Shown: positions 7,188-52,600, counted from the stretch's first letter. The stretch is 64,000 nt of DNA from Squalus acanthias (GCA_030390025.1 CM059431.1:94118001-94182000), one strand, 5' to 3'. Notes: generated by a model not told the origin, from the sequence alone. Program-made: numbers and translations.

Positions 7188-8540
7188 GGTCCAAAAATTG
7201 GGCTACTTACCGCCACCCGTTAGCACTGGAATCAATGTGAAAAATGGCGGCTGCCACTCTTACGCCAGTCCCTGGTGCGGGACTCGGTGGCCACCATTTT
7301 TGTAAGGGCCTTAGCGCTGCCAATAGGGTCACCCATTTAAAATGGAGATGAGGAGGAATTTCTTCTCTCAGCGGGTCATGAATCTTTGGAATTCTCTACC
7401 CCAGAGAGCTGTGGAGGCGGAGTCATTGAATATATTTGAGCTACAGGGGAGCCAAGGGTTATGGGGAGTGGGTGGGAAAGTGGCGTTGAGGCCAAGATCA
7501 GATCAACCATGATCTTATTGAATGGCGGGGCAGGCTCGAGGGGCCGAATGGCCTACTCCTGCTCCTATTTCTTATGTTCTTATGTTGTTCTTATGTTGGC
7601 AGGCCTGTCAGAAAGCCTAAATGCAATGTCAAGGAGCATGGAGGAGTTCAGCTCCAGTCTTGCACCGGGCTTTGTGCGGAGCTTGGAGCCCATCATTTCC
7701 AGCGTGGAAGAGGAGGCCAGATTCATTAACGCACTTGTGGACCCAACCATCATGCCATGTCTGATGGCCAAAGTCTCAGCTTCCATTGCAGCACAAGCAG
7801 AAGCCACCCAATGTCTGAGTTCTGCAATGGAACCTCAGACTGAAGTCATGCAAGCACAGCTTGCTGTCACACAAGCACAGACTGCTGGAATCATGGCTGG
7901 TTTGCAGGGTGCAACAGCAGTCCAGCAGCCTGTACTCCATCAGATTACTAGGATTGTTGAGGCGCTATCCCAGGGGAATGGCAATGGATCCATGGAGTTT
8001 CACTGCAGGTCTGGTTGCAAGAGGTGGCAGAGTTCTGTGAGCCTCCTTTGTAAAGCGCAGACACGTCAGACACTGCTCCTGCCTCAGACTGCGGTAAGAG
8101 AATTGCTCTCAGAAGACCCTAGGTGGGTAAGGCCTCCTGCTAAGAGCCCTTCTGCTCCTCCCTGTGCGAGCAGCTTGTCCTCTTATTTGTTGCCTCTGCT
8201 CCAGCTCCTTGTCATGCTGCAGGCCAAGGGGGATGACAACTAGAGCACCCATGACCAATGTTCCCTTTAAGCTGTGCGGCCAGTGCGGCTTCTAAATAGA
8301 AAAACAGTGCATGCGCCGAATTTTGAATGGACCACACACTTAACATTGCCTGTGACTGGGAGGAAGTGGTCTGACCAGAAACCTTGACGTCAGAAGCATG
8401 GCCTTCTCCACTTGCAGCACCACTTCCTGTCATCTCACTAACTTTAACGAACTCAAAAATCTCCAAACAGTTGCACAAACTTACACAGAGCCAGTAGAAA
8501 TCAAAAAGCAAGTTACCTTTAAATAGCAAAATGGGCACTA
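7188..8540 (+). mobile_element. Decayed Harbinger relic (left end plus Myb-gene C-terminal fragment at ~7595-8000)
   Basis: Left end resembles that at 60838; translation SLEPII...ASIAAQAEATQ...AQTAGI...QQPVLHQI matches exon 3 of the other Harbinger Myb genes. Right boundary uncertain. Confidence 0.55.
7340..7590 (+). mobile_element. Short CR1 3' fragment
   Basis: GAGATGAGGAGGAATTTCTTC...GGGCCGAATGGCCTACTCCTGCTCC and a TTCTTATG tail. Confidence 0.8.
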
Positions 8541-8562
8541 CGCAACCAAAGTTCTAAGCCTA

Positions 8563-9060
8563 TGTAAAACAACTCATCTTAAGTTGTTACCATGGCGTCA
8601 GCTTGGTGGGTTTACTAATGACTAAGAGATAAGACCAGAGATGCGTACATGAAGAACGAAGCATCCAAATAGTATAAGAAAGAAGTATGGATGAACAGAT
8701 GAACAAAGAAAGCTGGCCAGTCTATGTTTCAACTTACGACTTTTCCTGGACAGATCACCCAGAGATAAAGGAGCATGTATAAAAGTTGGACATAAGAGCT
8801 TAGATATTGTTAAAGTGTACTTTTATGTACGGTTGACTTGGGATATAAATCGCCAGAAGGTAGCATATAAGTTGCTGGGGTGTACTTTTATGTACAGTAA
8901 ATTGGAAGCATATTGATTACGAGAGAATGCTTCTATGTACACTTGAAATTTGAACTATAGTGTAAATAAAGACCAATTTTATTGATCACATACTTATCTG
9001 TCATTGTTACGCTTATTTGTAATTCTCAAAGTCTGAACAGTAGTAAGAGAATGGCTTACA
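8563..9060 (+). repeat. 5' LTR
   Basis: TGTAA start and TTACA end; AATAAA at ~8965; 8689-9060 repeats at 14488-14858. 5' boundary less certain. Confidence 0.8.
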
Positions 9061-9064
9061 TAAA

Positions 9065-9082
9065 TGCCGATCATGAAGGGAC
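9065..9082 (+). promoter_or_regulatory. Primer binding site, tRNA-Arg(TCG)-like
   Basis: TGCCGATCATGAAGGGAC, 4 nt after the LTR, matches TGGCGACCACGAAGGGAC (complement of a vertebrate tRNA-Arg-TCG 3' end, recalled from memory) at 15/18. Confidence 0.7.
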
Positions 9083-9112
9083 TTTGAGGGGAAAAAGCGT
9101 TTTTTTATAACA

Positions 9113-10040
9113 ATGCTGGACAAGAAAGTGAGAAGTATGGAGGATTTGGTAGCAAAATATATTAATGGAAAAATCGATAGAGATAAACCATGGGTTAGAG
9201 ATATTGTGCAGAACGATGACCCTGTACAAAAAGCAAAGGAATGGACGGAAGGTCTGTTAGGAAAGGTGCCATGGTATAAAGCGATGTGGCTGTTTGCCTA
9301 TCAAAGACAATTAGTTCAAAATAAGAAAGTGATGGATGAACAATCCAGAGAGATTGAGCAACTGAAACGAAAGGTGAACGACAGGGAAGCGGAGATGGAC
9401 CACCAGTTAAAAGAGTTAGAGGAATTAAAAGAACAGAGACAAGCTGGAAAAGTGAAAGGGGAAAGTAACGTGGAATACTTGCAATGTCAGGTGATGGAGT
9501 GTTCAAGGAGAGCTGATGAATGGGAGAAAAAAAGCCATAAGCAACATCGGCAGACAGCCTCGGCTGAGGAAGTGTTAAGCAATGTAAAAACAGCGGCAAC
9601 AAAAAGAGGGCGAAGCTGGTCACACTAAATGCCGAAAGGAAATTGAGCGATTGAAAGCTCGTCTATCAGTAGAGAAGGGGGATAATATGCTTGATGACCC
9701 CAGAGGAAGGAGATATGGAGGAGGAAGTAGAGGGGGAAGGAAAGTGGTCTGAGGATGAAACACAATACGGGGAATTGAGAATCCCGCCGGAAGTACCGGA
9801 ACCCCCGGTCCCACCGCCAATGAATCCTATGAGGCAGCAGAAATTTGGTTCCCCTGTCAGAGGACAGAACAGAGGGGTGTTAGAAAGTGATTATACCATA
9901 CCGTATAACACGACGCCATTGAAAGAAATGCTGGGTGATTTAGGGAAACTAGAAATGGGAGGTGAACTCCAAGGACATTTCATTGCAGTCGAACAAAGGG
10001 CAGCTGTAAGTGAAATGGATGAAGATGGAAAAATGAAGTT
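9113..10040 (+). pseudogene. gag: gag-like gene, N-terminal part with a long coiled coil and a proline-rich segment; frameshifted and truncated
   Basis: Starts just after the PBS; ORFs 9113-9628 and 9691-10095; E/K/Q heptad region; PEPPVPPPMNP. Confidence 0.6.
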
Positions 10041-11189
10041 AACCCCGCCAGAAAAGGGAGGGAGACAGAATAAGTTGCTGAGGCAATTTAAGTGAAGGAA
10101 AAAAAGGGGAAAATTAAAGTTTTACCGACACGAAGCTATTAGTTTCTGTCCAAAACAAGTAAAACACAGGAATTGCTGAGTGAAAGGAACCTTAAAAGAA
10201 TGTTGGAATTTCAGTTTGTGTGAAAGTGTGTGTTAAAAGTGTGGAAGTTTTCTGTTTCTTGAAAGAAGGTGTCTGGTGTGTTTGTTTCAGCTCCACCCAC
10301 TTTTCTGTACTGAGAGCTAGAAGTTGTTCAACCTTTTGTAGTCTTTTCTTGAATGATGGACAAGCGTGTGCTATTTTAAGTTTGTTAATTAAAATTCAAT
10401 TTAAGTTTGTGAATTGTTTTACAAAAGATAAGCTTCAGCCTTGAAGTTACAGTTGCCAATTTGAATGTTTACAAAGTATGTGTGAATGTTTCTTTGTTAG
10501 TGTGGCTTCTTCCTTTGTTTTTCAAGTGATACTGGTGAGTTTAAAATATTGGTTTGAATTGAATTGGAGTTATTGAGGTTAATTAACCTGTTAAAACCAG
10601 ACTTTTATTGTGGCCACGGTGAAATTCTGGTTGGTGTAAATTTGTGTGATAGCCTCTAGTTCTGGATATGAGGCAAAAACACATCAACACTTTTTGAAAT
10701 TTTTGACCAATTACAAGTATGGGTGTCCAGGGGGAAAAAAAGGAAATGCTATTTATTGTGTGGAGTTGCTTCACAGAATGTTTAGGATGTCTGATGCTTT
10801 TACGTGCTGAAGTGAATTGATCAGGATCTTAACAAAGATTTTAAAGGTACAAAGACTTTGCAAAAAGTAAAGATTTACTTGAAAGCTGTGAGAAGTTGTG
10901 TGAGAAAATCTGACAGTGATTGATGTCTGTGTTTGTCTTCTTTTGAAATGCAAAAGGTAGAAGTTAACTCTTTTCACAAGCAGCTGTGAACTCTGTTTTT
11001 AACTCCACAAACAGATGTGGGTTTTGTAAACATTTTGGGCATTGTTTTAAGTTTGAGTGGATGTTTCCCCACATTGACAGAAGGGCGTCGGAAATTGACG
11101 AATTCACCCATTTGGCTGTTCGGAAAGCCGCAATGGATTGTCTGTTTTTTCTTTTAAGCAGGGGGCCAGATGAGTGTTGATGGTGCAAG

Positions 11190-11683
11190 ATTACCAGCTG
11201 GGTAGAAGTCGTCTCACGCAAGTCAGCCACGGCCAAGACCCTAGTTGAGGGGGTATTCTACAGATGGGGATGTCCTCCGTGATAGGGTCAGGCCAGGGAA
11301 GTCTTTCTACAGGTCAGGTAATGCAAGCCACTCTGAAATTGCTAGGAATTGAAGGGAAATGGCATGTAACCCACAACCCACAATCATCGGGGATTGTGGA
11401 AAGAATGAACTGTACATTGAAGTTGGCCCTGCGAAAGGAATTAAACGAACAACACACTAAGTGGGATAAGGGACTTTCCCTAATCCTTATGGGGATACGC
11501 AGTAACAGATCCAAAGGATCGGGTCATTCCCCTCATGAATTGGTAACGGGGAGACCCATGCGAACCCCCACACACCTGTTGGTTCCCACTCTGACTGATA
11601 AACAAACTAAGGAGGTGGCTCAGGACAAATTCCTGAGCGACCTGTGGGGATCTTTAAAGGAACTGAACTTGAGCCGCCCGTAA
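11190..11683 (+). pseudogene. Retroviral/Gypsy-type integrase core remnant
   Basis: LGIEGKWHVTHNPQSSGIVERMNCTLKLAL...W...L..IR...GHSPHELVTGRPMR. Confidence 0.9.
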
Positions 11684-11805
11684 CATTGGGAACAACATCG
11701 GCAACCTTGGGAGGAGGTGGGAGCAAACCAAAAAGGAAATGATGTTGAATGTGTGAATAAGAGAATGTGAATATTAACTGTGTTGTGTGTTACAGAAGCT
11801 CCAGG

Positions 11806-13870
11806 ATGGGGAAACTCCTATACGCATTGAACGCTTTGATGCTCGTAATGGTTGGGATTGAACTATATCAGGAATCACAGCAGCTTGGAAACAGCACCAA
11901 TGGAACCATAACCTCACTGGATACAGGGTTTTCTGTTGTAAATGAGATGAATGTAACAATTAAAAATCAAACTATAACATGTTATAATTGGACAGTGAGA
12001 GTAACGGAGCAGAGGGTGCACGAGGGGCAAGGGATTTGTTTAAAATGTTCAAATGAGACCACTCCAAACGGGACGATCCTAGAACTTCGGTTTGCACCGG
12101 GTTAGACCACAAATAACTTGAGATTGAGGAAGGCAAGACAAATCGTAGCTACCCCGTTAATTGATGGGACAAGTTACTTTTGGACAAATTTCTGGTCAAG
12201 TAATCACACAGGAATATATATGTGTGTAAACAGAAATTTCTCCCATGATGATCCTCAAATTAAAAATTGTTATGATAATATTCAATGCCCTGATCAGTCC
12301 AAAGAAGCCATTCAATTAAAGGCGAAAGAGAAACCAGGGCCACCCGATGAAAGGAGTGAAAAGTGCCCCACCCCATTCCTTGCTCCAGTTAACGGATTGG
12401 TGTTGGTTCTGAGTGAGTTGTCAATGTTACATGATGTTGTATTAGATGCGAGGGAGGTTATTATCAATATGTCTAGTCTTGCCTTGCCAACATGGTACAG
12501 TGAACACACTAGAAACTGGTTAAGAGATAAAAAAGTGCAGTTAATAAAAACCTTTTGGAAGGAAAGTAGTGATCAGGTCCCGAAATCATTGGTACAGAGG
12601 AGAAAGCTCAGTGTGCTTAATAATATAGCAACAATGTGGAATAGGATTGGTAAATACAGGGGATATTGTGAGCCTGAACTATCAATTGGGAAAATTGAGA
12701 GAAAAGGTACAGCAGGCATTAAGAAACCAGAATAGCATAGGTAAAGTACAATTAGAAGCAGAATTGACCTTGATAATTCACATGCAAGGGTTGGTCAAAT
12801 TGTTGGAAAATCAGGCACAGGCCATAAACAATTTGACAAGGGAGGATAGAAACGCCTCTGATCAGGCAGCACGAAATGATGCATGCACGATGATGAGTTC
12901 TTGGATTCTACAGGACATAGGGAGGAATTTGAATAGAATAGCTGAGGGAAGGGTTCCAATTTGGATGGAAGATAAACACCTTAAGGCAGCGGAAAGGTAT
13001 CAGTCAAACTTGACAGTGTGTCAGTTGCAGTGTCTTCATTGTGGTACGTGTCGTGCCACATGAATGTAATCAGACTAACGATGATAGTTTGATAGGAATC
13101 ATATTAAGCATGCCCGTAATGTCCAAACCTTGGGCACCACTGCAGGTGTATAAGGTAGCCAATATGGGTTTCCTGAAAGAAGGTGTTTTAGATAAATATA
13201 CATCATTGCCTGGATATGTTGTTAAATATAACCAATCTCTCTATGAGGTAAAATTACAGCTATGTAAGACCCAAGGAAGAACCACCATGTGTATGTATAA
13301 TGTCTTGGACGATGAAGAGCCGTTATGCGGATTTAACTTGACAAGGATGTCTAAGTATCAGTGTCAGGTCACTGCTGTAAGGTCGAAACAATATACCACC
13401 ATTGTTTATAAGGAACAGGGGGTATTGTTGGACCACCACAGAAACAAAGTATAAATATGGGCAAAAGAATGCTACAATATGTCTGGTATCTAACAGTACT
13501 ATGTGTATTAAACCTAAAAGGATGGTAAAAATCAGGAACAGGACTATTCTGCCTTTAATGGATCAGAATCCAATGCATGTTAAGGCATCAACCGGGGTAG
13601 ACGATTTGGAGAAATACGTGTCCATTTTTGGATATGGGTTACCTTGGATAAATTAAAATCTCACTGAGTTTGTGAAACAGATTGGAGAAGTGGGAAGGAC
13701 ATTCTCAGTATTAATGCCAGAATAATAACCTCGTTAATGAACGAGGCGACTTCTTGGTGGGATTTGAGATATAATCGTATAGACTTAGCTCCGTGGGTAA
13801 GACTGTACTCACAAGCTCTGCTATGGTTACAGCTAATGTGTGTGATTGTGCTTATGTGGGAATGTGGGCA
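11806..13870 (+). pseudogene. env: env-like class I fusion glycoprotein gene, fragmented
   Basis: N-terminal hydrophobic signal (MGKLLYALNALMLVMVGI), many NxS/T sequons, degenerate furin site QRRKL/S (~12595-12612), fusion-peptide-like GIGLVNTGDI, heptad repeat, Cys-rich region, C-terminal TM-like ALLWLQLMCVIVLMW. Confidence 0.75.
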
Positions 13871-14064
13871 AGACATAAACAAAGAGAGAACAAGTGAAGA
13901 CAATTTAAACGTACGAGGGAATTGTTCCGGGATCAGCTTTAATAATGTGAAATGGGGGTATAGATATTGTATTATAGGGGATAAAAGGGGACTATGTCCG
14001 ATCGGAATACATACTGCTCCAACTCTGGTGAAATGTCTGCACATGAATAAACATGAGAGACATT

Positions 14065-14074
14065 GAAGGGAGGA
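14065..14074 (+). promoter_or_regulatory. Polypurine tract
   Basis: GAAGGGAGGA, one base before the 3' LTR start TGTAA. Confidence 0.75.
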
Positions 14075-14075
14075 C

Positions 14076-14858
14076 TGTAAGATTCTAAAAACTGTAATAA
14101 AACCGCTGCTACCATGTGGAGATCAAAGTTCAGAATGAATTGTGAAATGGTTATGGAATACTCAGAAGTCAGCATGTTCCTTTGTTTGTGAAGACACAAA
14201 ATGGCAGAAGTCAGCAGGGGGTCCTTTGCCTGGTGGTCAGCATGGTCCTTTGTGTGTAAGACCACATGGACAGGAAGGAGAAACATGAGTGATGAGGAAG
14301 TCCCATCCCCACACACATCACAGGAACATGAAAGTGTCATGCAGAAGGAACTCCAATCAAGGAAGGTTTGGAGTGAAACTGACCTATCAGAGGGAGGCAG
14401 ACAGTGATATACGAGGGGGGCCGGCAGAAAGGCCCTATAAAAGAATTGACCCAAAGGCGGGAAATTCAGAACAAAGAAAGAAGAACGGATGAACAGATGA
14501 ACAAAGAAAGCTGGCCAGTCTATGTTTCGACTTACGACTTTTCCTGGACCGATCACCCAGAGATTAAGGAGTATGTATAAAAGTTGGACATAAGAGCTTA
14601 GATATTGTTAAAGGGTAGTTTTATGTACAGTTGACTTGGGATATAAATCATCAGAAGGTAGGGTATATGTTGCTGGGGTGTACTTTTATGTACGGTAAAT
14701 TGGAAGCATATTGATTGCGAGAGAATGCTTCTATGTACACTTGAATTTTGAACTATAGTGTTAATAAAGACCAATTTTATTGATCACATATTTATCTGTC
14801 ATTGTTACGCTTATTCATAATTCTCGAAGTCCAAACAATAGTAAGAGAAGGGCTTACA
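14076..14858 (+). repeat. 3' LTR (783 bp)
   Basis: Follows the PPT; TGTAA...TTACA termini; AATAAA at ~14763; 3' half matches the 5' LTR. Confidence 0.88.
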
Positions 14859-16146
14859 GGCCCCGATGTACTCAAGTGGAGGGAGAAAGCCTAGTGTAGG
14901 CCTCTTCTCTCTCCATTTGGGTTCAACCTACTTACTTTAGTCCTCAGTTGGTCAAGGCCTAAAAGTGAATGTTCCCTTCTCCTCTTTGGGGCTCTTCTGC
15001 CTCTTTAATTCGCAGGCCACCTCTTCTGGTACTGCACCAGCAGTCCTGCTCCAGCACCACTGGGATATTCCATCATTAGCAGTGACAGGCTCCCTCTTGT
15101 GGTGGTGGTCTTGCCTGGAGACCACCTTATATGCAAAATAAGCCCTGGCCCAAGGAAATGGATTAGTGTTGTAGTGGTGTGAAGGCGGCAAGCGGAAGTC
15201 CTGCCCTGTCCCACCATGATATCACTACAAAGAGGAAAATACAACACAAGTCATGACAACAACCCAACAAGTTCTTCTTTCTTTAAATACTTTCTTTTTG
15301 CCAATCATCTCCCCTGTCTCTAATATGCCTGGGGATAGTTCGACAAGTTCAAACTTCCAGGGGTCTCGCCCAAGAGGCTGCTGTTTGTGAGCCAAAAATA
15401 AAACCCACGCCAACGATCAAACCGAGCGATGGCAAACTACGGCTGTTTCAGCTTTGTCACAAAATAACTAAACAAACAACTTCATCACAATTTTAAAAAA
15501 ATTACAAGTCTGAGTTTATTTTGGACTTAGAAGGTCATCACTCCTTTGTGTATGTGGATTCTCTGGAGTGGGGAAAGTTTTTGAGGATGCGCTGTGTTGT
15601 GGAGTAATTTGAAATACTCAACACAAGTCTGATATCGAGAGTCCAAGCATTCTTTATTCGCACGCGTGGGGAGACAGCCTGCTTCTGTCTAGGCCAAGCT
15701 TCTCCCAATTGTTCCAGCAGTGGTCAGATATTTATACATCCAAATGATGCGTTATACATCGTTCCCGCCTCTTTTCTAGGACATTCTGGGGGAAAAATTA
15801 GGTCGCGCCCCATTTGGGGCGCAAATATCGTCTGGACGCAAATATTAGCGCCTGGCGCTAATTATCGCCACTGACTGGAAACTTCACTTTTACCGCCCCG
15901 GGAGGTGAGTGGAGCGCTAAATCAGGCGCTGCACACCTGTCTTAAGGCGCAAAGGCCGAGCAGTGAGGCGCTAACTCAGCGCGCGAGCGCAGCGCAGCTG
16001 CTGCCAGTTAGCGAGGGAACACAGACACACTGGCGCCGGCCACTTCTTAAAGCGGGGGGGGGCCACTTGCTCCCCAGCCACACCCTGCTCATTGCAGCCT
16101 TGAATCTCGGCCTGGAGAGACCTGTGAATCCATTTTGCTGCCAAGG

Positions 16147-18332: not shown

Positions 18333-19493
18333 CTAGAAGCGGCTTGCTATTAGCCGTTGACGGACGGCCCTTGCAGTTTCACCATTGTGGGCCGCCCTCC
18401 CGCCTTGGTGCTGCTGCTGATCATCCTCCTCGTCCTCTTCCTCCTCTTCCTCCTCCTCCTCTGGTGGTGCTCCAAGGCCTGGTGGCATTGGCTGGGTCCT
18501 GAGGATTGCCATGTTATGCAACATGCAGCACACAACTACGAAGTTGGATACTCGCTCATGCGAGTACTGCAGGGCTCCTCCAGAATGGTCGAGACAGCAG
18601 AACCGTTGCTTCAGCACGCCGATTGTGCACTCAATTATGTTCCTGGTAGCTTGATGGCTCTCATTGTTCCGCAGCTCAGCAGGGGTGTTGGGCGTACGGA
18701 GCGGTGTCATCAGCCAGGTGCTCAATGCATACCCCTTGTCCCCGAGAAGCCAACCAACTGGCTGATGCGGTGCCTCGAAAAGTTCTGCCACAGTAGTCTG
18801 GCGCAGGATAAAAGCATCGTGGCAGCTGCCAGGATAGTGGGCATTGACAGTGAGTATCAGCTGTCTGTGGTCACAGACCAACTGAACATTCAAGGAATGG
18901 AACCCCTTTCTGTTCCGGAATTCCTCGGCATTCTCATGCGGAGCACGCAAAGCCACATGCGTGCAGTCAATGGCGCCCTGCACCATGGGGAAGCCCGCTA
19001 CCCTCGCAAAGCCCAGAGCGCGGTCACGCTGCTTGTCTGGGGTTATGGGGAAAGAGATGAACTCTCGTCTCCTTTTAAAGAGGGCATTTGTGACCTGCCG
19101 GATGCAGCAATGCACCGCGAACTGGGAGATATTGGCGAGGTCCCCAGCAGCAGCTTGAAATGAGCCAGTAGCGTAGAAGTTGAGAGCCACTGTGACCTTC
19201 ACTGCCACCGACAGAGACGTCCTGGACCTCAGTTGAGGCTGCAGATCTGGCTGCAGCAGGTGGCAGAGCTCAGTGACCACCTCCTTGCTGAATCGCAGCC
19301 TTCGCAAACACAGCTCCTCAGACATATGAAGGTAGCAGAGCTGTTCACGATATACCCTGGGAGGGTAAGCTCTCCTGTACATACGCCTGTTGGCCCTCCT
19401 CCGTCTGGCCATCATTGCCACTCTCTCTCTGCGCCTCTGTGTCCTCCGATTCAGCTGGAGCAGGACGACGCCCCCAATCAGTGCAGCCCCCAT
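18333..19493 (-). CDS. Harbinger DDE transposase (HARBI1-like), 386 aa, open ORF
   Basis: [40 protein letters not shown] and IIECTIGVLKQRF motifs. Confidence 0.95.
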   Translation of the reverse strand: MGAALIGGVVLLQLNRRTQRRRERVAMMARRRRANRRMYRRAYPPRVYREQLCYLHMSEELCLRRLRFSKEVVTELCHLLQPDLQPQLRSRTSLSVAVKVTVALNFYATGSFQAAAGDLANISQFAVHCCIRQVTNALFKRRREFISFPITPDKQRDRALGFARVAGFPMVQGAIDCTHVALRAPHENAEEFRNRKGFHSLNVQLVCDHRQLILTVNAHYPGSCHDAFILRQTTVAELFEAPHQPVGWLLGDKGYALSTWLMTPLRTPNTPAELRNNESHQATRNIIECTIGVLKQRFCCLDHSGGALQYSHERVSNFVVVCCMLHNMAILRTQPMPPGLGAPPEEEEEEEEEDEEDDQQQHQGGRAAHNGETARAVRQRLIASRF

Positions 19494-19596
19494 AGTCTCT
19501 TTGCAAGCAAAGTAATGAAGGACAGCAACTAAAGTACTAGCGAAGTTAGGATCAGTAGGCAAAACTACCTCACAAAGCGTTGAGTCAATGCAGAAG

Positions 19597-19636
<40 letters not shown>

Positions 19637-20504
19637 AACGAGTGGTGCAAAAATGTCCACCACAGAATAAGACAGGAAGAGGTCCCCTTTAAATAGCGCC
19701 CCCCCCAGCCCCACAGCGATTGATAGCGTTCCAGTCTTCCGGTCGTTGGATGCGCCAGGCGGTAAGGCAGGGGGCGCCACTCAATTTCCGCTCCGGGGCA
19801 CCACAAGGGCGTTGCACCATGGAATGACATCACAATCTGTGCGCGCAGGTGGTCGCAGCGGTAAGGTTTAGCGCCGCCGCACAATCTCTAGTGAAGTTCC
19901 CGAGCGGCGCAAACATCGCTGCGCCCGGGCGTTAGCGGCTTTGCGCCCCATTAGCGCCCTCTTAAGGCGCTAACGGGAGGCGCAACCAACTGAATTTTTA
20001 CCCCTCTATGTTACAACGTCATTTGTCCCAGTTCCTGTTAATACCAGGTGGCGCACCCTTGCCCTAATTTTGAGAATTGGTAACTCCATGTCTATTGTGG
20101 CCCGACTCATTGTCAGCTGCCTAAGTCATGTGGTTCCTATTGCGGTTCTCCGTCTGCACAGATACATTATCTTGCAACAACAGCTCTTTTGCCACGTCTG
20201 TTAACCAGAACATTTTTAGTTTCTTGCAGCGTTTGCAATCCTGTGGTTACGTCCCGTGATTATGTCTGGCAATGTTGCACCCTGCTCTCCTTGACCATTG
20301 TCTGTATAGAACCAAGCCCCCGTCGCACAACACTACTCTACACTAACTTTACTTTTCCCCTTTCACGCTGGCTCAAGTCAACTTCACTCACTGCCCACAT
20401 ATATGGGAAATACGTAGGTTGGCGGGGTTTCCTATCACCAGTTAGTTCTTGGACAATTTTCCTCTTTGTGTCAGCTTGTCTCCATCAGTGGCACTATTAC
20501 TTGT

Positions 20505-21332: not shown

Positions 21333-21873
21333 GAAAAAAGCAGGAAATTAAATAGATTTAAAGCAAGGATAAAGCTGGAAAAAGGGAGAAGGGATGAAAG
21401 AACAAAAGGTGAGATTAAGAGACATTGAGAGACATTAAGAGATGATCAAGGCAAGAGGTTGTGTTAATGTGACAGGTTGAGGCTAAAAGAAGTGTGAAAT
21501 GCACTGGCAGAATGAAGGACAGCTGCCAGCTTCTGGGAGGGAAAAAAAAGAGGGGGCCAAACAAAAGGGTGGATGAAAAAATAAAATATAAATGTGATTG
21601 GGGCCGAGGTTATGATCTAAAATTGTTGAACTCGATGTTGAGTCCAGAGGGCTGTAGGGTGCCTAAACGAAAGATGAGGTGCTGTTCCTCGAGCTTACGC
21701 TGAGCTTCCGTGGAACAGTGTAATAGGCCGAGGACAGTGAGGTCAGAGTGGGAGTGGAGCAGAGAATTAAAGTGACAGGCCACCGGGAGCTCGGGGTCCC
21801 CCTTACGGACTGAACGGAGATGTTCCGCAAAGCAGTCACCCAATCTGCGTTTGGTCTCCCCAATATAGAGGAG

Positions 21874-23160
21874 GCCCAACCAGTCCCCATCCACCACCAC
21901 CCTCCTCCGCCTGGCTGAACTTGTTCTCACATTGAACAACTTCTCCTTTGACTCCACCCATTTCCTCCAAATCAAAGGTGTTGCTATGGGTACCCGCATG
22001 GGTCCTAGCTATGCCTGCCTTTTCATGGGATATGTGGAACACTCTTTGTTCCAGTCCTACTCGGGTCCCCTCCCTCACCTCTTTTTCCGGTACATTGATG
22101 ATTGTATTGGTGCCGTCTCCTGCTCTCGCCCTGAACTAGAACATTTCATTCACTATGCTTCCAATTTCCACCCTTCCCTCACCTTCACATGGTCCATCTC
22201 CAACTCTTCCCTTCCCTTCCTCGACTTCTCCGTCTCCATCTCTGGGGATAGGTTATTGACAAACATTCACTACAAGCCCACTGACTCCCACAGCTACCTG
22301 GACTACACTTCCTCCCACCCCACCTCCTGTAAGGACTCTATTCCATTCTCCCAGTTTCTCCGTCTACGCCGCATCTGCTCTGACGATGCCACCTTCCATA
22401 CCAGTGCTTCCGACATGTCTTCCTTTTACCTCAACCGAGGATTCCCCTCTACTGTGGTCGACACGGCCCTCGACCGTGTCCGTTCTATCTCCCGCACTTC
22501 TGCCCTCACCCCTGCCCCTCCCTCCCGGAACCACGATAGAGTTCCCCTTGTCCTCACCTTTCACCCCACCAGCCTCCACATTCAACGGATCATCCTCCGC
22601 CATTTCCGCCACCTCCAGCGTGATCCCACCACCAAACGCATCTTCCCCTCACCTCCCTTTCAGCATTCCGCAGGGACCGCTCCCTCCGCGACACCCTAGT
22701 CCACTCCTCTACCACCCCCAGCACCCCTTCCCCTTCGCCCGGCACCTTCCCGTGCAAGCGCAGGAGATGCAACACATGCCCTTATACCTCCCCTCTTCCC
22801 ACTTTCCAAGGCCCCAAACACCCCTTCCAGGTGAAACAGCGATTTACTTGTACTTCCTGCAATTTAGTATACTGTATTCGCTGCTCACGATGTGGTCTCC
22901 TATACATTGGGGAGACCAAACGCAGATTGGGTGACCGCTTTGCGGAACACCTCCGTTCAGTCCGTAAGGGGGACCCCGAGCTCCCGGTGGCCTGTCACTT
23001 TAATTCTCCGCTCCACTCCCACTCTGACCTCACCGTCCTCGGCCTATTACACTGTTCCACGGAAGCTCAGCGTAAGCTCGAGGAACAGCACCTCATCTTT
23101 CGTTTAGGCACCCTACAGCCCTGTGGACTCAATATCGATTTCAACAATTTTAGATCATAA
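21874..23160 (+). pseudogene. Penelope RT (C-terminal part) plus GIY-YIG endonuclease; one frameshift near 22655
   Basis: QIKGVAMGTRMGPSYACLFM, FRYIDD, LPFLD, YKPTD; LVYCIRC..C...YIGETKR.L..RFAEH...GLN. Confidence 0.92.
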
Positions 23161-34871: not shown

Positions 34872-36032
34872 CTAGAAGCGGCTTGCTATTAGCCGTTGAC
34901 GGATGGCCCTTGCAGTTTGACCATTGTGGGCCGCCCTCCCGCCTTGGTGCTGCTGATGATCATCGTCCTCGTCCTCTTCCTCCTCTTCCTCCTCCTCCTC
35001 TGGTGGTGCTCCAAGGCCTGGTGGCATTGGCTGGGTCTTGAGGATTGCCATGTTATGCAACATGCAGCACACGACTACGAAGTTCGATACTTGCTCAGGC
35101 GAGTACTGCAGGGCTCCTCCGGAATGGTCCAGACAGCGGAACCGTTGTTTCAGCACGCCGATTGTGCGCTCAATAATGTTCCTGGTTGCTTGATGGCTTT
35201 CATTGTACCGCAGCTCAGCAGGGGTGTTGGGCGTACGGAGCGGTGTCATCAGCCAGGTGCTCAATGCATACCCCTTGTCCCCGAGAAGCCAACCAACTGG
35301 CTGATGCGGTGCCTCGAAAAGTTCTGCCACAGTAGTCTGGCGCAGGATAAAAGCATCGTGGCAGCTGCCAGGATAGTGAGCATTGACAGCGAGTATCAGC
35401 TGTCTGTGGTCACAGACCAACTGGACATTCAAGGAATGGAACCCCTTTCTGTTCCTGAATTCCTCTGCATTCTCACGCGGAGCACGCAAAGCCACATGCG
35501 TGCAGTCAATGGCGCCCTGCACCATGGGGAAGCCCGCTACCCTCGCAAAGCCCAGAGCGCGGTCACGCTGCTTGTCTGGGGTCATAGGGAAAGAGATGAA
35601 CTCTCGTCTCCTTCTGAAGAGGGCATTTGTGACCTGCCGGATGCAGCAATGCACCGCGAACTGGGAGATATTGGCGAGGTCCCCAACAGCAGCTTGGAAT
35701 GAGCCAGTGGCGTAAAAGTTCAAAGCCACTGTGACCTTCACTGCCACCGACAGAGACGTCCTGGACCTCAGTTGAGGCTGCAGATCTGGCTGCAGCAGGT
35801 GGCAGAGCTCAGTGACCACCTCCTTGCTGAATCGCAGCCTTCGCAAACACAGCTCCTCGGACATATGGATGTAGGAGAGCTGTTCACGATATACCCTGGG
35901 AGGGTAAGCTCTCCTGTACAGACGCCTGATGGCCCTCCTCCGTCTGGCCATCATTGCCACTCTCTCTCTGCGTCTCTGTATCCTCCGATTCAGCTGGAGC
36001 AGGACGACGCCCCCAATCAGTGCAGCCCCCAT
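34872..36032 (-). CDS. Harbinger DDE transposase, 386 aa, apparently intact
   Basis: AIDCTH, GDKGY and IIERTIGVLKQRFRCL motifs; no stops. Confidence 0.95.
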   Translation of the reverse strand: MGAALIGGVVLLQLNRRIQRRRERVAMMARRRRAIRRLYRRAYPPRVYREQLSYIHMSEELCLRRLRFSKEVVTELCHLLQPDLQPQLRSRTSLSVAVKVTVALNFYATGSFQAAVGDLANISQFAVHCCIRQVTNALFRRRREFISFPMTPDKQRDRALGFARVAGFPMVQGAIDCTHVALRAPRENAEEFRNRKGFHSLNVQLVCDHRQLILAVNAHYPGSCHDAFILRQTTVAELFEAPHQPVGWLLGDKGYALSTWLMTPLRTPNTPAELRYNESHQATRNIIERTIGVLKQRFRCLDHSGGALQYSPEQVSNFVVVCCMLHNMAILKTQPMPPGLGAPPEEEEEEEEEDEDDDHQQHQGGRAAHNGQTARAIRQRLIASRF

Positions 36033-39000
36033 ATTCTCTTTGCAAGCAAAGTAATGAGGGACAGCAACTAAAGTAGCAGCAAAGTTAGGATCAATAGGCA
36101 AAACTACCTCACAAAGCGTTGAGTCAATGTAGAAGTCTCTCTCTCTCTCTCTCCGAATCTCTCTCTCTCTCTCAGAACGAGTGGTGCATAAATGTCGACC
36201 ACAGAAAAAGACAGGAAGAGGCCCCCTTTAAATAGCGCCCCCCCCAGCCCCACAGCGATTGATAGCGTTCCAGTCTTCCGGTCGTTGGAAGCGCCAGGCG
36301 GTAAGGCAGGGGGCGCCACTCAATTTCCGCTCCAGGGCGCCACAAGGGCGTTGCACCATGGAATGACGTCACAATCTGCGCGCGCAGGTGGTCGCAGCGG
36401 TAAGTTTTAGCGCCGCCGCACAATCTCTAGTTAAGTTCTCGAGCGGCGCAAACATCGCTGCGCCCGGGCGTTAGCGTCTTTGCGCCCCATTAGCGCCCTC
36501 TTAAGGCGCTAACGGGGCGCAACCAACTCAATTTTTACCCCTTTGTGTCTTAATGCGAGGAGCATTCCTAATAAGGTGGATGAATTAGCTGCGCAAATAG
36601 ATGTAAACGGATATGATATAATTGGGATTACGGAGACATGGCTCCAGGGTGACCAAGGCTGGGAATTCAACATCAGGTGTATTCAATATTCAGGAAGGAC
36701 AGGCAAAAAGGAAAAGGAGGTGGGGTAGCATTGCTGGTTAAAGAGGAGATTAACACAATAGTAAGGAAGGATATTAGCTCTGATGATGTGGAATTTGTAT
36801 GGGTAGAGCTGAGAAATACCAAGGGGCAGAAAATGTTAGTGGGAGTTGTATACAGACCCCCAAACAGTAATGCTGGGGTTGGGGATGACATTAAATGGGA
36901 AATTAGAGATGCGTACAATAAGGGCACAGCAGTTATCATGGGTGACTTTAATCTACATATAGATTGGGCTAACCAAATTAGTAACAATACTGTGGAGGAG
37001 GAATTGCTAGAGTGTATATGGGATGGTTTCCTGGACCAATATGATGAGGAACCAACTAGAGATCAGGCCATTTAGACTGGGTATCATGTAATGAGAAAGG
37101 ATTAATTAGCAATTTAATGTGCGAGGCCCCTTGGGGAGGAGCAATCATGATATGATAGAATTCTTCATTAAGATGGAGAGTGAAGTAGTTGACTCAGAGA
37201 CTAGGGTCCTGAATTTAAATAAAGGAAACTACGATGGTATGAGGTGCGAGTTGGCTAGGATGGATTGGGGAATGTTACTTAAAGGGTTGACGGTGGATAG
37301 GCAATGGCAAACATTTAAAGATCGCATGGATGAACTACAGAATTTGTTCATCCCTGTTTGGCATAAAAATAAAACAAAAAAGGTGACTCAACCGTGGCTA
37401 ACAAGGGAAATTAGGGAAAGCATAAGATCCAAGGAGAGGATATATAAATTGGCCAGAAAAAGCAGCAAACCTGAGGATTGGGAGCAGTTTAGGATTCAGC
37501 AAAGGTGGACAAAGGGATTAATTAAGAGGGGGAAAATAGAGCATGAGAGTAAGCTTGCAGGGAACAAAAAAACTGACTGTAAAAGCTTCTATAGATATGT
37601 GAAGAGAAAAAGATTGGTGAAGTCAAGCGTAGGTCCCTTGCAGTCAGAATCAGGGGAATTTATAATGGGGAACAAAGAAATGGCATACCAATTAAATACA
37701 TACTTTAGTTCTGTCTTCACAAAGGAGGACACAAATAACCTCCCAGAGATGTCGGGGAACATAGGGTCTAATGAGAGGGAGGAACTGAATGAAATCAGTA
37801 TTTGTAGGGAAATGGTGTTAGGGAAATTGACGGGATTGAATGCTGATAAATCCCCAGGGCCTGGTAATCAACGTCCTAGGGTGCTTAAGGAAGTGTCCCT
37901 ATAAATAGTAGATGCATTGCTGGTCATCTTTCAAAATTGTATAGACTCTGGAACAGTTCCCATGGATTGGAGGGTAGCTAATGTAACCCCACTATTTAAA
38001 AAAGGTGGTAGAGAGAAAACGAGAGCCTGACATCGGTAGTGGGGAAAATGCTAGAGTCCATTATAAAAGATGTAATAGCAGAGCACTTGGAAAACAGTGA
38101 CAAAAGGTAAATCATGCTTGACTAATCTACTGGAATTTTTTGAGGATGTAACTGGTAGAATAGATAAGGGAGAACCAGTGGATGTGGTGTATTTGGACTT
38201 TCAGAAGGCTTTGATAAGGTCCCGCATAAGAGATTAGCATGCAAAGTTAAAGCACATGGGATTGGGAGTAAGGCACTGACTTGGATAGAGAACTGGTTAG
38301 CAGACAGGAAGCAAAGAGTTGGAATAAACGGGTCTTTTTTCCAAGTTGCAGGCAGTGACTAGTGGGGTACCGCAGGGATCGGTGCTAGGACCCCAGCTAT
38401 TCACAATATATATTAATGTTCTAGACGAGGGAACTAGATGTAATTTCTCCAAGTTTGCAGATGACATAAAGCTGGGTGGGCGTGTGTGCTGTGAGGAGGA
38501 TGCAGAGAAACTCCAGTATGATTTGGACAGGTTGGGTGATTGGGCAGATGCATGGCAGATGCAGTATAATGTGGATAAATGCGAGGTTATCCACTTTGGT
38601 GGCAAAAACAGGAAGACAGATTATTATGTGAACGGCAATAGATTGGAAAAAGGGGAAGTGCAACGAGACCTGGGTGTCCTTGTGCACCAGTCGCTGAAGG
38701 TAAGCATGTAGGTGCAGCAGGCGGTTAAGAAGGCAAATGGTATGTTGGCCTTCATAGTGAGAAGATTTGAGTACAGGAGCAAGGATGTCTTGCTGCAGTT
38801 GTACAGGGCCTTGGTGAGACCACACCTTGAGTATTGTGTGCAGTTTTGGTCGCCTTATCTGAGGAAGGATGTTCTTGCCATGGAGGGAGTGCAGCGAAGA
38901 TTCACCAGACTGATACCTGGGATGGCAGGAATGACATATGAAGAGAGATTGGGTCGATTAGGCTTATATTCGCTAGAGTTTAGAAGAATGAGAGGGGATC

Positions 39001-39336
39001 TCATTGAAACTTATAAAATTCTAACAGGACTAGACAGACTAGATGTAGGAAGGATATTCCCGATGGCGGGGGAGTCCAGAACCAGGGGTCACAGTCTAAG
39101 GATATGGGGTAAGCCATTTAGGACTGAGATGAGGAGGAATTTCTTCACCCAGTGAGTGGTGAACCTGTGGAATTCTCTACCACAGAAGGCAGTTGAGGCC
39201 AATTCATTAAATATATTGAAGAATGAGTTAGATATATTTCTTAAGGCTAAAGGGATCAAGGGATATGGGGAGAAAGCAGGGATAGGGTACTGAATTTGGA
39301 TGATCAGCCATGATCTCAGATCTATAGCTACACAGG

Positions 39337-39830
39337 AGAGAGGGGAGCAGCCGAGCGTGGAGCAGCAGAGAGAGGAGCAGCAGAGAGGGGAGCAGCAGAG
39401 AGGGGAGCAGCAGAGAGGGGAGCAGCAGAGAGGGGAGCAGCAGAGAGAGGAGCAGCAGAGAGGGGAGCAGCAGAGAGGGGAGCAGCAGAGAGGGGAGCAG
39501 CAGAGCGTGGAGCAGCAGAGAGGGGAGCAGCAGAGAGGGAAGCAGCAGAGAGGGGAGCAGCAGAGAGGGAGCAGCAGAGAGAGGAGCAGCAGAGAGGGGA
39601 GCAGCAGAGAGGGGAGCAGCAGAGAGGGGAGCAGCAGAGAGGACAGCAGCAGAGAGGGGAGCAGCAGAGAGGACAGCAGCAGAGAGGGGAGCAGCAGAGC
39701 GGACAGCAGCAGAGAGGGGAGCAGCAGAGAGGGGAGCAGCAGAGAGGACAGCAGCAGAGAGGGGAGCAGCAGAGAGGACAGCAGCAGAGCGTGGAGCAGC
39801 AGAGAGGGGAGCAGCAGAGAGGGGAGCAGC
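39337..39830 (+). repeat. 15-bp minisatellite (GAGCAGCAGAGAGGG)n, ~33 units
   Basis: Directly visible; translates as EQQRG or GSSRE repeats. Confidence 0.97.
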
Positions 39831-41330
39831 TCGCAGGAGGCACTAACTGCGAAACAGGGTCTGCAGGCAGAGGCTGCGTTTCCTTGACATCTCTGAACAG
39901 CAGTGTCTCAGGAGGCTCAGGTTGTTGCGTCATCTGCAGCCAGCTGGAAGAAGACCTGCTGGATCTGGTGGCCACATGTTACCACTGGCTGTCAAAGGCA
40001 CCACCATCCTCAATTTTTTTGCTTCTGGATCCTTCCAGGGCTCTGCTGGAACACCCAGTCAGCATCCTACAAATGCATAAGACAGGTGACTGATGGGTTG
40101 TTTGCCAGGGCTGGCAATTATGTCAACCTTGCCTGTGATGATGCCAGTCAGAATGAGTGGGTGCTTGGGTTTGCGGCTCTAGCTGGCTTCCCACAGGTGT
40201 AGGCGTCATTCACTGTACACACGTGGCAATTCGGGCACCCCTAGATCAACCAAGATTATTTGTCAACCACAAGGGCTTCCACTCCATCAATGTGCAGCTG
40301 GTGTGCAACCATAAAAAAATATTTCTACAGGTGTGTGTGAGATTTTCAGGGAGCTGCCATGATGCTTTCATCCTGCAGCAATCCAAGCTCCCAAGCAATG
40401 CCCTGCAACACTCATGTTTGAGCTGGACTCCGCCATTCTCTATGCAATCGTGGAGAGTGTGCATGGAAGGCCTGCCAGTACACAGCAGATTTTTTGCTGC
40501 CCCTCAGTGATTATTCTCTTCATCGTTGGCCCCCGGGATACAGCATCTGTGTCCAGCTGAGCAGAGCCCTCCGACGCAGACTCTCCACAGTTGTCCCTGC
40601 CACCACTGTCTACTCTTGCTCACTTGTGAACTGTGAGTCACCAGGTGAAATCCCAATTAACTGCCGAGCTGGACCTACTGAAGTGTGAGTATCTGAGCTG
40701 GTGCATGGTAAGCATGAGTCCTGTGATGGTGCACCCTCAGAAGGAATCAACTCCTCTGAGGATTCATGATCCGGGAGCTCCACCGACTGCTGCTGTACAC
40801 GTGAAGACCCCGGTGGAGAAAAAAGACATGAATCAGTACTGACAAAGTAAGAATGTTGTAACTTAGCATGATGAAGAGGATCATATTTCACTCGCTGCTG
40901 AAATCAAGTCAACTTGACTAAGTGTTGTATGACATGTGAGTCGCTGATATTTAATTGTGTCACCAGGTAGCTGAGAGCTCCCAATCTCCCTATCTCCGAT
41001 GGTCAGGGATGCTGAAACACCATTGATCTCCAGCGCCTCCTCCTCTGCAACTGAGAAATCTGTCGAGGACCACCTCCAGTTCTCTCCCTCTCTCTTGAGT
41101 TCTCTGATCTCTTCTCCTGTAATATGAGTTACTGTAATGGCACATGTTCACCCGATGGATGCAGTGCCTTTGGTGAGGGTGACTATCAGGGAGAGGCATC
41201 AAATTGCAAAAGGATCAGGTTGAGTGGCAGCAGTGGATGGATTGATGGGGATGTCAGGAAGTGCATAGGAAGAGAACAATGGGTGCACTTGCAAAGTAAG
41301 TGGGTGTGAGCAGTTATGTGATAGTCTTGA
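39831..41330. mobile_element. Decayed, internally deleted Harbinger relic
   Basis: Plus strand FLDISEQQCLRRLR, IHCTHVAIRAP and KGFHSINVQLVC..SGSCHDAFIL (39870-40390); minus-strand Myb-gene fragments at 40500-41110. Confidence 0.8.
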
Positions 41331-49676: not shown

Positions 49677-52600
49677 GGGCTGGATTTTGCCATTGGTGGC
49701 GGGTTGGGTGCGAGTTAGGTGGTCGGTGGGTCCTGATCCTGCCTCTGCTATCGGGCGGGAAAAATTGTGATTTTGCCCTAATTGGGCAATTGATTCCCAG
49801 CGTGTGCAAACCCCTGGCCCAATTAGTTTTTGGGCCTGAAACTTGCCTCTGTTGACGTCATTTCTCCAGCTGCATTTAAGGGCTAGAGCAGCCTTGGTTA
49901 ATTTTGTGCCTATACGCTTGTGTTTACTTCTGATCATAATAGTTTTTGGAGCTAGTGGAATGTTGACTTCAAGGCCCAAGGCCTCACCTCGGTGGAGGGA
50001 GCCAGAGCACAAAAGGAGGTGCTCTTTCCATCCTCTGGGAGGAAAAAACTTCCTCAGCAGACCAAAGCTGTGTGACTGCAAGTTGCCCAGAAGGTCAGTT
50101 CCAGATCGATATGCAGCAGAACCTGACTGCAGTGCCGAAAGAGGTTCAGTGACCTTTTTCGAACAGGCAAAGTGAGTACAGCATCACTTTTACCCTCATT
50201 CTGCTCCCCATCTCCTCTCAGCACCATCACTCTGCATTGTCAACATACTCCTACACATCCCACTTTACCTTTACATCCCTTGCACCCTTAACCATCCCTC
50301 TCTCTCTATGTACACAATCACTTAACTATTCGACTATGCTGCCCTCACACTTCCTATCACTGTTATGCTATGACAACAACTAACAACACACAGGGAGGGC
50401 CCTTACTTTTGGGACCTCACTCCATCTTTGTGTCCTTCTAAGCATCTATGCTATGGATTATCTACACTCACTCCATCATTCTCATTCAAACTCCACTTGT
50501 GTCTCTCATTGCAGGAAAAGAGAGCCCACAATAAGAGGGAAAGGGCGAAGACCAGAGGAGGGCCACCCTCAATAGCCCGTCTTACCAGCGCAGAGGAGGC
50601 GGCCCTAGAGATCGCTTGCGTCAAGGAGGATGTGGAAGTGGGGGACGGACAGATGGACACATCAGAGCAAGCTGGTGACAGTATAGTTTTGCATCTCTCG
50701 CATTGACATTGCATGAGTGACTGATAGGGCTTCTGATGCTCAATAAGATTCCATGTGCATGCTACGTTTATATCACATGTCTAACTCATGCCTTTACTCC
50801 CCTACAGGGCCATCGACAGCCCCCCTCCCCACTGTCCAGGAGGGAGAGACTGAGCCGGAAGACTCTTCAGAGGAGCCTGCAACCTCTGAGGGCGCAGCGT
50901 CAGCAGAATTATGCGCACCCAGCACCAGCGCAGATACGCACACCTCGGTGGGACCTTCGGGACATAGAGTAGTGTTGTCACCTGGTGTATCACAGCTCAC
51001 AAGTGAGCATCAGCAGATGGTGGAGACAGGGACAGCAGTGGAGAGTCCTCGTTGGAGGCCGCAGGGCACTCCCAGCTCTGCTCAGCTGCATGTCGACCCT
51101 GTGCCTCTGGGTCCATCCAGAAGGAGAGCAGTGCTGGAACTCCAGGAACAGGTGCAGGAGTCTCTGGCAGGTATTGTCTCCAGGGTCACTACGAGTGTGG
51201 AGCAGATGGAGGAGTCCAACGCTAACATGAGCAGAGCCTTTGTGGCGGCAATGGCGAATGAACACATCACCATGGAAAGGATGGCTACCTCCATGGAAAG
51301 GATGGCTACGGCAGAGGAGAGGATGACTACGGCCATGGAGGAGCTAAGTTGCCAGAGTGTGGAAAACATGGTGAATGTTCAGAATAGACTGACATCTCTG
51401 GAGGAGCGATGGACAGCTATTGATCAGAGAAACCAGACCTTCATGGAAGTCCTCTGGAGTAGGACTGCCAGTGCAGAACCGGGTCCTCATGGCCCCCCTG
51501 ATGTGCAGCAAGGTGCTGTCAAGCCACTTGCTAGCTCTGAAATGGGGCTGACCCATGAGAGAGATGTTGGTGGCAGAGAAGAAGGAAGTGGGGGCTCCTC
51601 TCCAAGCGCTTACACGACCATGCCACTGCGAAGCCCTCGGTCAGAGCCCCACCAGAGTCCTCACCCAAATGAGATGGGCGTCTCAGCCCCTGCACAGCCG
51701 CAGGAGGAGCAGACTGTTGCCAAGCCCTCACAGGCTCACAACCCCAGAGGACGCCCGCCAAAGGTGTCGAAGCAGGAGCAGCATGAGAGTAAGCAAGGGG
51801 CCTCCACATCTGTTGAAGCCACAGGAGAAGCACCATGTAGGAGCACGCGTAAGAGGAAGATAAAGCACAATTAGTCACAAGGGTAGTCACTTGGGTGTTA
51901 TGTTGTGTTTAATAGTTAAATGGCATCCTTTAGTCAATGTATTAAAATGAAGTGATGGCAAATTGCTGAAGTTCTGGACTCTGTCATTTGGGAAATGGAA
52001 ATTCCACATTGAGGGCTCAGGGTGCATTGTATTTGTCATGATGGTGGTCAGAGTGATAGGAAGCCACAGGTTCTTGTCCATTGTCTATGGTGTGGTAAGA
52101 AGGAGCCAGGCACATGTGTTTGAATGGGCAACTTAAGCAAATCTGGCCAAGATGAGTGTATCCCTTGCATCCCGGGCAGCAATGTGCTCGCGTGCTGCTG
52201 CAGCTGGTTGATGCGCATCCGCAAGGTCTTCGTTCTTGTTCTCAGCTATGCGCTGAGCCACTTGTTCCTCAGGCAACTGCAAGCCACGATGCTGTGCGAT
52301 GTTGTGCAGTGCACAGCAGACCACGATGATTCTGGAGACCCTGGCTGCTGAGTATTGCAGGGCTCCACCTGATCTGTCAAGGCATCTGAATCACATGTTC
52401 AGCAAGCCGATGGGTTGCTCGATGATGGATGTGGTCAAAATGTGAATGGAGTTGTAGCGCTCCTCAGCTTCGTTGGATGGCCTCCTGAACGGCGTTCTTA
52501 GCCACGTCTTCAGGGGATAGCCCTTGTCTCCAAGTAGCCGTCCGTAAAGTTGGTCTGGCGGACTGAAGAGCGGAGGCACACTAGACTGCCGCAGGATGAA

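Follow-up and report, generated by a model that had tools for sequence, protein, structure and literature searches.

A fossil provirus with an F-like envelope in Squalus acanthias and its possible kinship with lokiretroviruses

Lokiretroviruses are vertebrate proviruses with a long terminal repeat (LTR) at each end, and they were defined by the phylogeny of their reverse transcriptase (RT), which groups them with Odin as sister to canonical retroviruses, by a dual RNase H and by an envelope protein (Env) resembling the fusion (F) proteins (Wang & Han, PMC7947760). In the same work their integrase (IN) is the sister of CGIN1, their Env matches the Pfam family PF00523 at 2.2e-7, and none of the six chondrichthyan genomes screened is positive. 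Lampreys, bony fishes, amphibians and reptiles are the groups in which such viruses have been reported, and cartilaginous fishes form a gap in this host range. The Env of foamy viruses is structurally F-like as well, with an added receptor-binding domain in its N-terminal subunit (PMC11468914); an F-like env is therefore not by itself a marker of lokiretroviruses. We report here on a provirus occupying positions 8676-14858 of a 64,000-nucleotide stretch of Squalus acanthias DNA (GCA_030390025.1 CM059431.1:94118001-94182000), hereafter called the window; coordinates are counted from the first letter of the window, and all features of the provirus lie on the + strand. An earlier note, made from the sequence alone, had proposed a candidate lokiretrovirus with an F-like env in a cartilaginous fish, and its statement that lokiretroviruses had been reported from outside the sharks agrees with the screen just cited. 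With a probability of roughly one half, we consider the provirus to be the fossil of a shark lineage related to lokiretroviruses.

The envelope protein and its relatives

The env of the window copy (11806-14066) can be read through the frames 1, 2, 0, 1 and 0 in succession, and its damage amounts to one in-frame stop (12103-12105) and at least four frameshifts, near 12642-12650, 13030-13053, 13421-13423 and 13650-13668. The N-terminal subunit (11806-12594) comprises a signal peptide (11806-11870), an extra domain rich in Cys and in N-glycosylation sites and an F2-like part with PGP at 12334 and NGLVLVL at 12391; its 268 amino acids (aa) carry 10 N-x-S/T sequons. The signal peptide is hydrophobic and plain, and starts only 16 codons past an upstream stop, without a long leader peptide. 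The next segment (12595-12664) consists of a decayed furin site, QRRKL (12595-12609), and of the conserved N-terminus of the membrane subunit, where the segment SVLNNIATMWN / GIGLVNTGD is found together with the first of the frameshifts. A long heptad helix resembling heptad repeat A (HRA) of the F proteins follows, then an EGRVPIWM segment (12665-13030; 36% identical to the relative P0010), then a Cys-rich beta region of about 200 aa resembling the domains DI and DII (13053-13656), which holds the third frameshift and ends with a stop. The last part (13668-14066) contains a membrane-proximal helix resembling heptad repeat B (HRB), the motif SWWDL, a transmembrane (TM) helix at 13803-13859, whose best 19-residue hydropathy window is 1.73, and a cytoplasmic tail closed by TGA at 14064-14066. 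This C-terminal piece resembles by eye the C-termini of the relatives P0013-P0015; MAFFT misplaced it.

Most of these parts had been seen in the earlier note (signal peptide, glycosylated N-terminal subunit, near-furin site, GIGLVNTGD, heptad helix and TM helix) and all of them are found again. The Cys-rich region is also present, but the length of about 250 aa ascribed to it is too large, the two helices being separated by about 200 aa. The motif CX6CC, said to be missing, is absent from all three frames of 11680-14100 and from 14 of 14 relatives. A gamma-type Env has this motif and an immunosuppressive domain after a short HR1, while here the two helices stand some 200 aa apart. Judged on its sequence, the architecture of this Env is F-like and not gamma-type.

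A profile search with Env gathered 14 proteins which together span the whole of it. In a phmmer search of the Cys-rich piece against 1.84 billion representatives there were 5 matches, 3 of them real (P0005, P0006, P0008); the other two, P0004 and P0007, were discarded as low-complexity repeat proteins. A word-based search for homologues of the same piece among longer proteins gave none. Four relatives (P0011, P0017, P0020, P0021) align over the N-terminal subunit. All nine relatives which bear a species name belong to Pristiophorus japonicus, Chiloscyllium punctatum, C. plagiosum or Scyliorhinus torazame, that is to sharks of three orders, and the one named Pol relative is also from a shark, which bears out the cartilaginous host proposed at the outset. 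As far as protein sequences tell, this retrovirus-like family has so far been found only in sharks. In six relatives R-x-R-R is aligned to the QRRKL of the window, and the 20 residues after this site are polar in the relatives (G-[VLT]-[VLI]-N-D..NTGTS..NS[LM]D).

The order of the parts (a short or medium N-terminal subunit, furin site, HRA, Cys-rich DI/DII, HRB, TM) is that of the F proteins of paramyxoviruses and pneumoviruses (PF00523) and of baculoviruses and errantiviruses (PF12259), with the difference that the shark gene is carried by a retroelement and not by an RNA or DNA virus. Probably, the fold is of the F type too. The Cys-rich piece gives one match to PF00523 (E 0.0013, 17.6 bits for a cut-off of 29.8), located where one would expect it within the profile (positions 270-357 out of 487). 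In the ESM Atlas, the features of P0006 rank Baculo_F/Gypsy env clusters on top (0.95, 0.94, 0.94), Fusion_gly scoring 0.92; by structure, rows 1-5 for P0006 are all F-type clusters (TM 0.39-0.57, the others at most 0.29), and so are rows 1-4 for P0011 (0.31-0.37, the others at most 0.23). For both proteins, which are 30-34% identical, clusters of baculovirus F, gypsy Env and F0 head the features and the predicted structures alike, well above the unrelated rows.

Several results weigh against this reading. The PF00523 match, besides being below the cut-off, is the only one, the 17 other Env sequences out of 18 having none. Hidden Markov model searches of the PDB sequences at E up to 10, made with the profiles A4 and A5 as well as with the piece from the window, match neither an F protein nor a foamy Env. 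The AlphaFold2 (AF2) models are poor, with a pLDDT of 43.5 for P0010 (where helices are seen at 30-75 and 83-146, with low confidence) and of 54.7 for P0013, and Foldseek finds nothing at E <=0.001 for either. A wide search with VIA-align matched only the long helix, to coiled coils. The F-like env of the earlier note stands for its layout, which is not gamma-type, while the Pfam match is below the cut-off and neither AF2 nor Foldseek lends support to it.

For the P0010 model, Foldseek ranks a foamy postfusion Env first (8rm1_D, E 0.18); like the weak rows for F proteins, it is non-significant and we do not take it as evidence. In a different explanation, the provirus would be a foamy-like (class III, spuma-related) endogenous retrovirus (ERV) of cartilaginous fish, with an F-like env because foamy Env has the F fold. 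Foamy viruses and the foamy-like ERVs of fish share with the shark family an F-like Env whose N-terminal subunit is enlarged, and foamy-like elements of sharks are known from their pol (PMC5512871; PMC10699275); most shark ERV RTs have been reported as clade III (PMC11089739). By contrast, not one of the 18 Env sequences matches the family Foamy_virus_ENV, with E allowed up to 1 (the gag and env of fish foamy-like ERVs have anyway been reported without detectable homology to foamy viruses, PMC10699275), the long leader peptide of foamy Env is missing, and the extra domain stands N-terminal to the F2-like part, not between this part and the furin site. We think the foamy-like origin unlikely, but it is the chief alternative; the evidence from pol and gag is given below.

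Likeness to lokiretroviruses and the origin of the family

The integrase piece of the window finds three proteins: a gypsy Pol (30%) and two closer relatives, P0001 (57%), from Heptranchias perlo, and P0002 (60%), an unnamed Pol of 1145 aa which is the closest intact relative. P0001 bears the NCBI name 'NYNRIN-like', NYNRIN being the present name of CGIN1. P0002 contains a protease (PR), RVT_1, the RT_RNaseH/RT_RNaseH_2 tether (PF17917/PF17919), an RNase H (PF00075), Integrase_H2C2 and rve; a weak Tf2-type SH3 domain was noted by Pfam in the integrase of the family. The dual RNase H by which lokiretroviruses are characterised, a tether derived from a gypsy RNase H together with an acquired RNase H, is therefore present in P0002 (PF17917/PF17919 and PF00075), the corresponding region being deleted in the window. 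A search with P0002 found no viral contigs and the alignment A7 no metagenome contigs; one contig, L001, which appeared with the Pol alignment A6, is unrelated (24% identity) and was not used.

We compared P0002 with the consensus proteins of lokiretroviruses given in the supplement of PMC7947760, beside HMMER alignments for xenotropic murine leukaemia virus-related virus (XMRV), prototype foamy virus (PFV) and Ty3; the identities with lokiretroviruses are manual counts made by eye and not statistics. The integrase core is ~46-49% identical to that of lokiretroviruses and ~33% to that of PFV; with Loki-Bsp the identity is ~46% over ~172 aa, with the common motifs VFSRWGLP, LPLVLMxIR and MTGRxMxxPxHxL. 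The integrase of the window itself is ~42% identical to Loki-Oja and 32% to PFV. The tether is likewise nearer to lokiretroviruses (~39%) than to XMRV (~23%). The Env of both has a furin site followed by a long helix, ~200 aa of Cys-rich sequence and a TM helix, the similarity to PF00523 being weak in the shark family, and by eye one also recognises in the loki consensus the same Cys framework and the motifs G-R-[IV]-P-x-[WY], Y-[RK]-[LV]-x-[DN]-[VM], PPxV, C-x8/9-LCP-x12/13-CG and, ~90 aa before the furin site, PGPxxG[IL]VL.

The RT and some traits of Env speak against a lokiretrovirus in the strict sense. The RT core of P0002 is ~30% identical to lokiretroviruses, ~35% to XMRV and ~29% to Ty3, its thumb ~38% to lokiretroviruses and ~42% to XMRV, its RNase H ~26% and ~28%, respectively. 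The RT motifs are LPQGF and QYVDDLLL as in XMRV, not the CPFGY and IYVDDIL of lokiretroviruses, of which 19 RT passages out of the 19 inspected carry PFGY. Since the RT motifs resemble XMRV while tether and integrase resemble lokiretroviruses, the Pol of this family is a mosaic in similarity. The cleavage site of lokiretroviruses is R-x-K-R and the peptide after it is hydrophobic (FLGGL..AA.A.GSLF); that of the shark family is R-x-R-R, QRRKL in the window, and the peptide is polar. The shark Env has an extra N-terminal domain of ~190 aa, and its PF00523 signal is far weaker (E 1e-3 compared with 2e-7). The best match of the family integrase among solved structures is the integrase of PFV (120 bits, Ty3 scoring 90), and three species that were negative for lokiretroviruses in PMC7947760, in Chiloscyllium and Scyliorhinus torazame, hold the shark Env family. 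Our literature search returned no report of a lokiretrovirus in sharks. The earlier label of lokiretrovirus is supported in part: by eye, integrase, tether and Env carry motifs of the loki kind, but the RT motifs, the polar peptide and the loki-negative hosts argue against plain membership.

The last two points against lokiretroviruses, the PFV match and the negative hosts, would suit the foamy-like origin. So would the N-terminal coiled coil of Gag described below, a feature described as foamy-like (bioRxiv 10.1101/2024.03.25.586437). The integrase is nevertheless nearer to lokiretroviruses when counted by eye (46-49%, to be set against ~32-33% for PFV), Spuma_A9PTase has no match in P0002 and Gag_spuma none in the two gag pieces of the window, and the RT with the tether of P0002 scores higher with the chain 8wus (198 bits) than with the foamy RT 7o0h (172 bits). 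We take the 8wus chain to be a gamma-type RT, the table naming no virus.

A further alternative is a canonical fish retrovirus, epsilon-like or snakehead-retrovirus-like, endowed with an uncharacterised type of env which happens to be F-like. Besides the RT core and motifs already mentioned, the RT-RNase H of XMRV/MLV (murine leukaemia virus) is the best retroviral score of P0002 among solved structures (230 bits when aligned end to end through RNase H, foamy-virus RT-RNase H reaching 195), and ERVs of the elephant shark cluster with snakehead retrovirus and epsilonretroviruses (PMC4422223). Yet by eye neither XMRV nor PFV comes nearly as close to the tether and the integrase as lokiretroviruses do, the RNase H lies at equal distances (36 bits with XMRV and with human RNase H1, 31 with PFV), and the gamma-type markers are wanting, neither zf-H3C2 nor MLVIN_C being found in P0001/P0002, nor CX6CC in Env. 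This makes a canonical retrovirus distinctly unlikely in our eyes.

The insect Baculo_F and gypsy Env clusters heading the ESM Atlas features, as well as an integrase with Integrase_H2C2 and the weak Tf2-type SH3 domain, could also be those of a Ty3/gypsy 'errantivirus-like' retrotransposon having captured an F-type env, as is the case in insects and other invertebrates. P0002, however, possesses after its tether a second RNase H of the cellular/retroviral type (PF00075, 67 bits) and aligns through it to the XMRV and foamy RT-RNase H, while the alignment with the Ty3 RT ends at the tether and, at 147 bits, falls short of those with the 8wus chain and the foamy RT. Because of this acquired RNase H we hold the gypsy origin to be highly improbable; besides, a survey of env-bearing gypsy elements reported no vertebrate ERVs that are homologous to the invertebrate ones (bioRxiv 10.1101/2023.10.26.564294).

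We come back to the kinship with lokiretroviruses. Since the RT motifs are canonical, the fusion-peptide region is polar and Env has an extra N-terminal domain, the family, although closest to lokiretroviruses in integrase, tether and Env motifs, most likely represents a separate lineage, as far as such comparisons of sequences can tell. That it could be a deep retroviral lineage lying between lokiretroviruses and canonical retroviruses, with a canonical-like RT and a loki-like tether, integrase and Env, seems to us unlikely on the whole. If this were true, then, since foamy viruses have an F-like Env as well, it would argue for an F-type envelope ancestral to all vertebrate retroviruses, the extra N-terminal receptor domain having been added independently in sharks. 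Sharks with a lineage that combines a loki-like integrase and Env with an RT of canonical look would close the gap among the hosts, and such a lineage would be a new data point on the ancestry of F envelopes and on the frequency of swaps between pol domains.

An intact virus of this family would have had the layout LTR-gag-pol-env-LTR, with an N-terminal coiled coil in Gag and with a Pol comprising protease, RT, tether, acquired RNase H and integrase (Pol being modelled here on P0002 and not on the window copy). Its Env would have belonged to the class I fusion proteins and, among these, to the F type: a signal peptide and a glycosylated subunit made of the ~190-aa extra domain and the F2-like part, then R-x-R-R cleaved by furin, the conserved polar N-terminus, the heptad helix, the Cys-rich beta domains of ~200 aa, the second helix and the TM helix. 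By analogy with F proteins, entry may have proceeded by refolding of the trimer into a six-helix bundle.

Borders, gag and the missing part of pol

The provirus is delimited by a direct repeat of 385 bp (8676-9060 and 14474-14858), with 26 differences, that is 93.2% identity and a Kimura two-parameter distance (K2P) of 0.071, both copies of which end in ...CTTACA. The pair confirms that the element is bounded by LTRs, as first proposed, but some of its borders had to be revised. At the 3' end, the env stop TGA (14064-14066) is followed by the polypurine tract GAAGGGAGGAC (14065-14075), not by a tract beside 14474 as had been thought, and directly by the TG of a complete 3' LTR (14076-14858, 783 bp, TGTAAG...CTTACA, with TATAAA at 14576 and AATAAA at 14763). 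The TGTAAG at 14076 and the CTTACA end form an exact inverted repeat, and the summed depth of contigs jumps at the bin border 14075 in all four sequencing runs. As the full 3' LTR measures 783 bp from 14076, the 385-bp 5' LTR (8676-9060, TATAAA at 8778, AATAAA at 8965, end CTTACA) is a remnant truncated on its 5' side: it retains the last 385 bp of ~783 and its first ~398 bp are gone, so that a target-site duplication cannot be read. It does not start at 8563, as the earlier note had it, 8563-8675 having no match on the 3' side and 8531-8675 being low-copy by contig depth in the four runs.

Two observations concern this 5' side. In run X1, a contig agrees with 8489-8677 except for 2 differences, then continues with 107 nucleotides unlike the window, and the divergence falls exactly where the truncated LTR begins; a second allele, a further copy or a branch of the assembly could account for it. 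A short repeat at 8457-8518, just 5' of the provirus, is far commoner than the provirus in four runs out of four.

Four nucleotides past the 5' LTR stands a degenerate 18-mer (9065-9082) resembling a primer-binding site, which starts with TGC and not with TGG; its assignment to tRNA-Arg in the earlier note is putative. Snakehead retrovirus uses a tRNA-Arg primer, and such an assignment would fit the canonical fish retrovirus considered above. ARAGORN and Rfam find no tRNA gene in the 64-kb window. The N-terminal part of Gag follows as an open reading frame (ORF) at 9113-9628, the Pfam matches of which are coiled-coil families only (E 4e-4 to 0.2), in keeping with the coiled-coil gag announced earlier. 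An N-terminal coiled coil in Gag is also found in BHIKHARI, a lokiretrovirus of zebrafish (bioRxiv 10.1101/2024.03.25.586437). The continuation of gag, in another frame (9673-10095), is acidic and Pro-rich, then enters the start of the capsid region and is cut off at 10095; no Pfam family matched it.

From 10096 to ~11160, a filler takes the place of the rest of gag, of PR, RT and RNase H and of the first half of IN. It has no ORFs and matches no families; most of it is an unrelated, non-coding and very high-copy repeat of ~700 bp (10148-10840), the depth of which is 10-20x that of env in all four runs, with loose contig ends at 10150. What remains of the integrase (11199-11683) goes from just past the region of the second catalytic Asp to the end of the core; it is interrupted by two stops and by a frameshift near 11280, and lacks the C-terminal SH3-like domain. 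The motifs WVEVV, FYRWG, HNPQSSG and VTGRPM are recognisable, the best match among solved structures is the PFV integrase (39 bits), and the identity of 57-60% with shark Pol proteins given above shows that the integrase had been called correctly. Beside this remnant, contigs of the four runs join 11195 directly to 11797, from which it follows that some copies of the family are deprived even of the integrase remnant.

With its 5' LTR truncated, PR, RT, RNase H, most of gag and half of IN replaced, env broken and the furin site decayed, the window copy is a dead fossil, unable to function. The element is multi-copy in the runs, which come from four organisms and the contigs of which cover 30 of 30 bins with 85-99% likeness. 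A contig of run X1 crosses the junction at 14858 into the flank with 2 differences. Contigs of organism A extend across 14820-14998 and across 15001-15200, either stretch showing 2 differences, which means that organism A holds this very insertion. A contig of organism D (run X9) spans the junction between filler and integrase (11055-11312); the structure without pol is therefore shared by a second organism and not private to the window copy, and for this reason the copy belongs to a non-autonomous subfamily, probably spread by pol-bearing relatives. Loose contig ends which read as P0002-type integrase are seen in runs X6 and X9. Non-autonomous derivatives exist among lokiretroviruses too, BHIKHARI carrying gag only.

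Surroundings of the provirus

The remainder of the window is repeat-rich vertebrate DNA without any N, containing RT fragments of long interspersed elements (LINE) and ORFs of Penelope-like and PIF/Harbinger elements; Rfam and ARAGORN find no RNA genes in its 64 kb. Two intact ORFs of 451 aa encode PIF/Harbinger-type transposases (18333-19688 and 34872-36227, both on the - strand; DDE_Tnp_4, E 1e-38). They lie within a duplicated block of at least ~4 kb (16.0-19.7 kb and 32.6-36.2 kb), in which neighbouring ORFs are repeated as well, and a third, partial copy of the transposase is found at 52391-53269 (-). Penelope-like remnants are present at 22624-23160 (+) together with 21610-22008 (-); Pfam recognises in them a GIY-YIG endonuclease motif (E 1e-4). 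Finally, a long low-complexity tandem array at 39228-40093 has several open frames on both strands, which are rich in Ser/Leu/Pro or in Gly/Glu/Arg.

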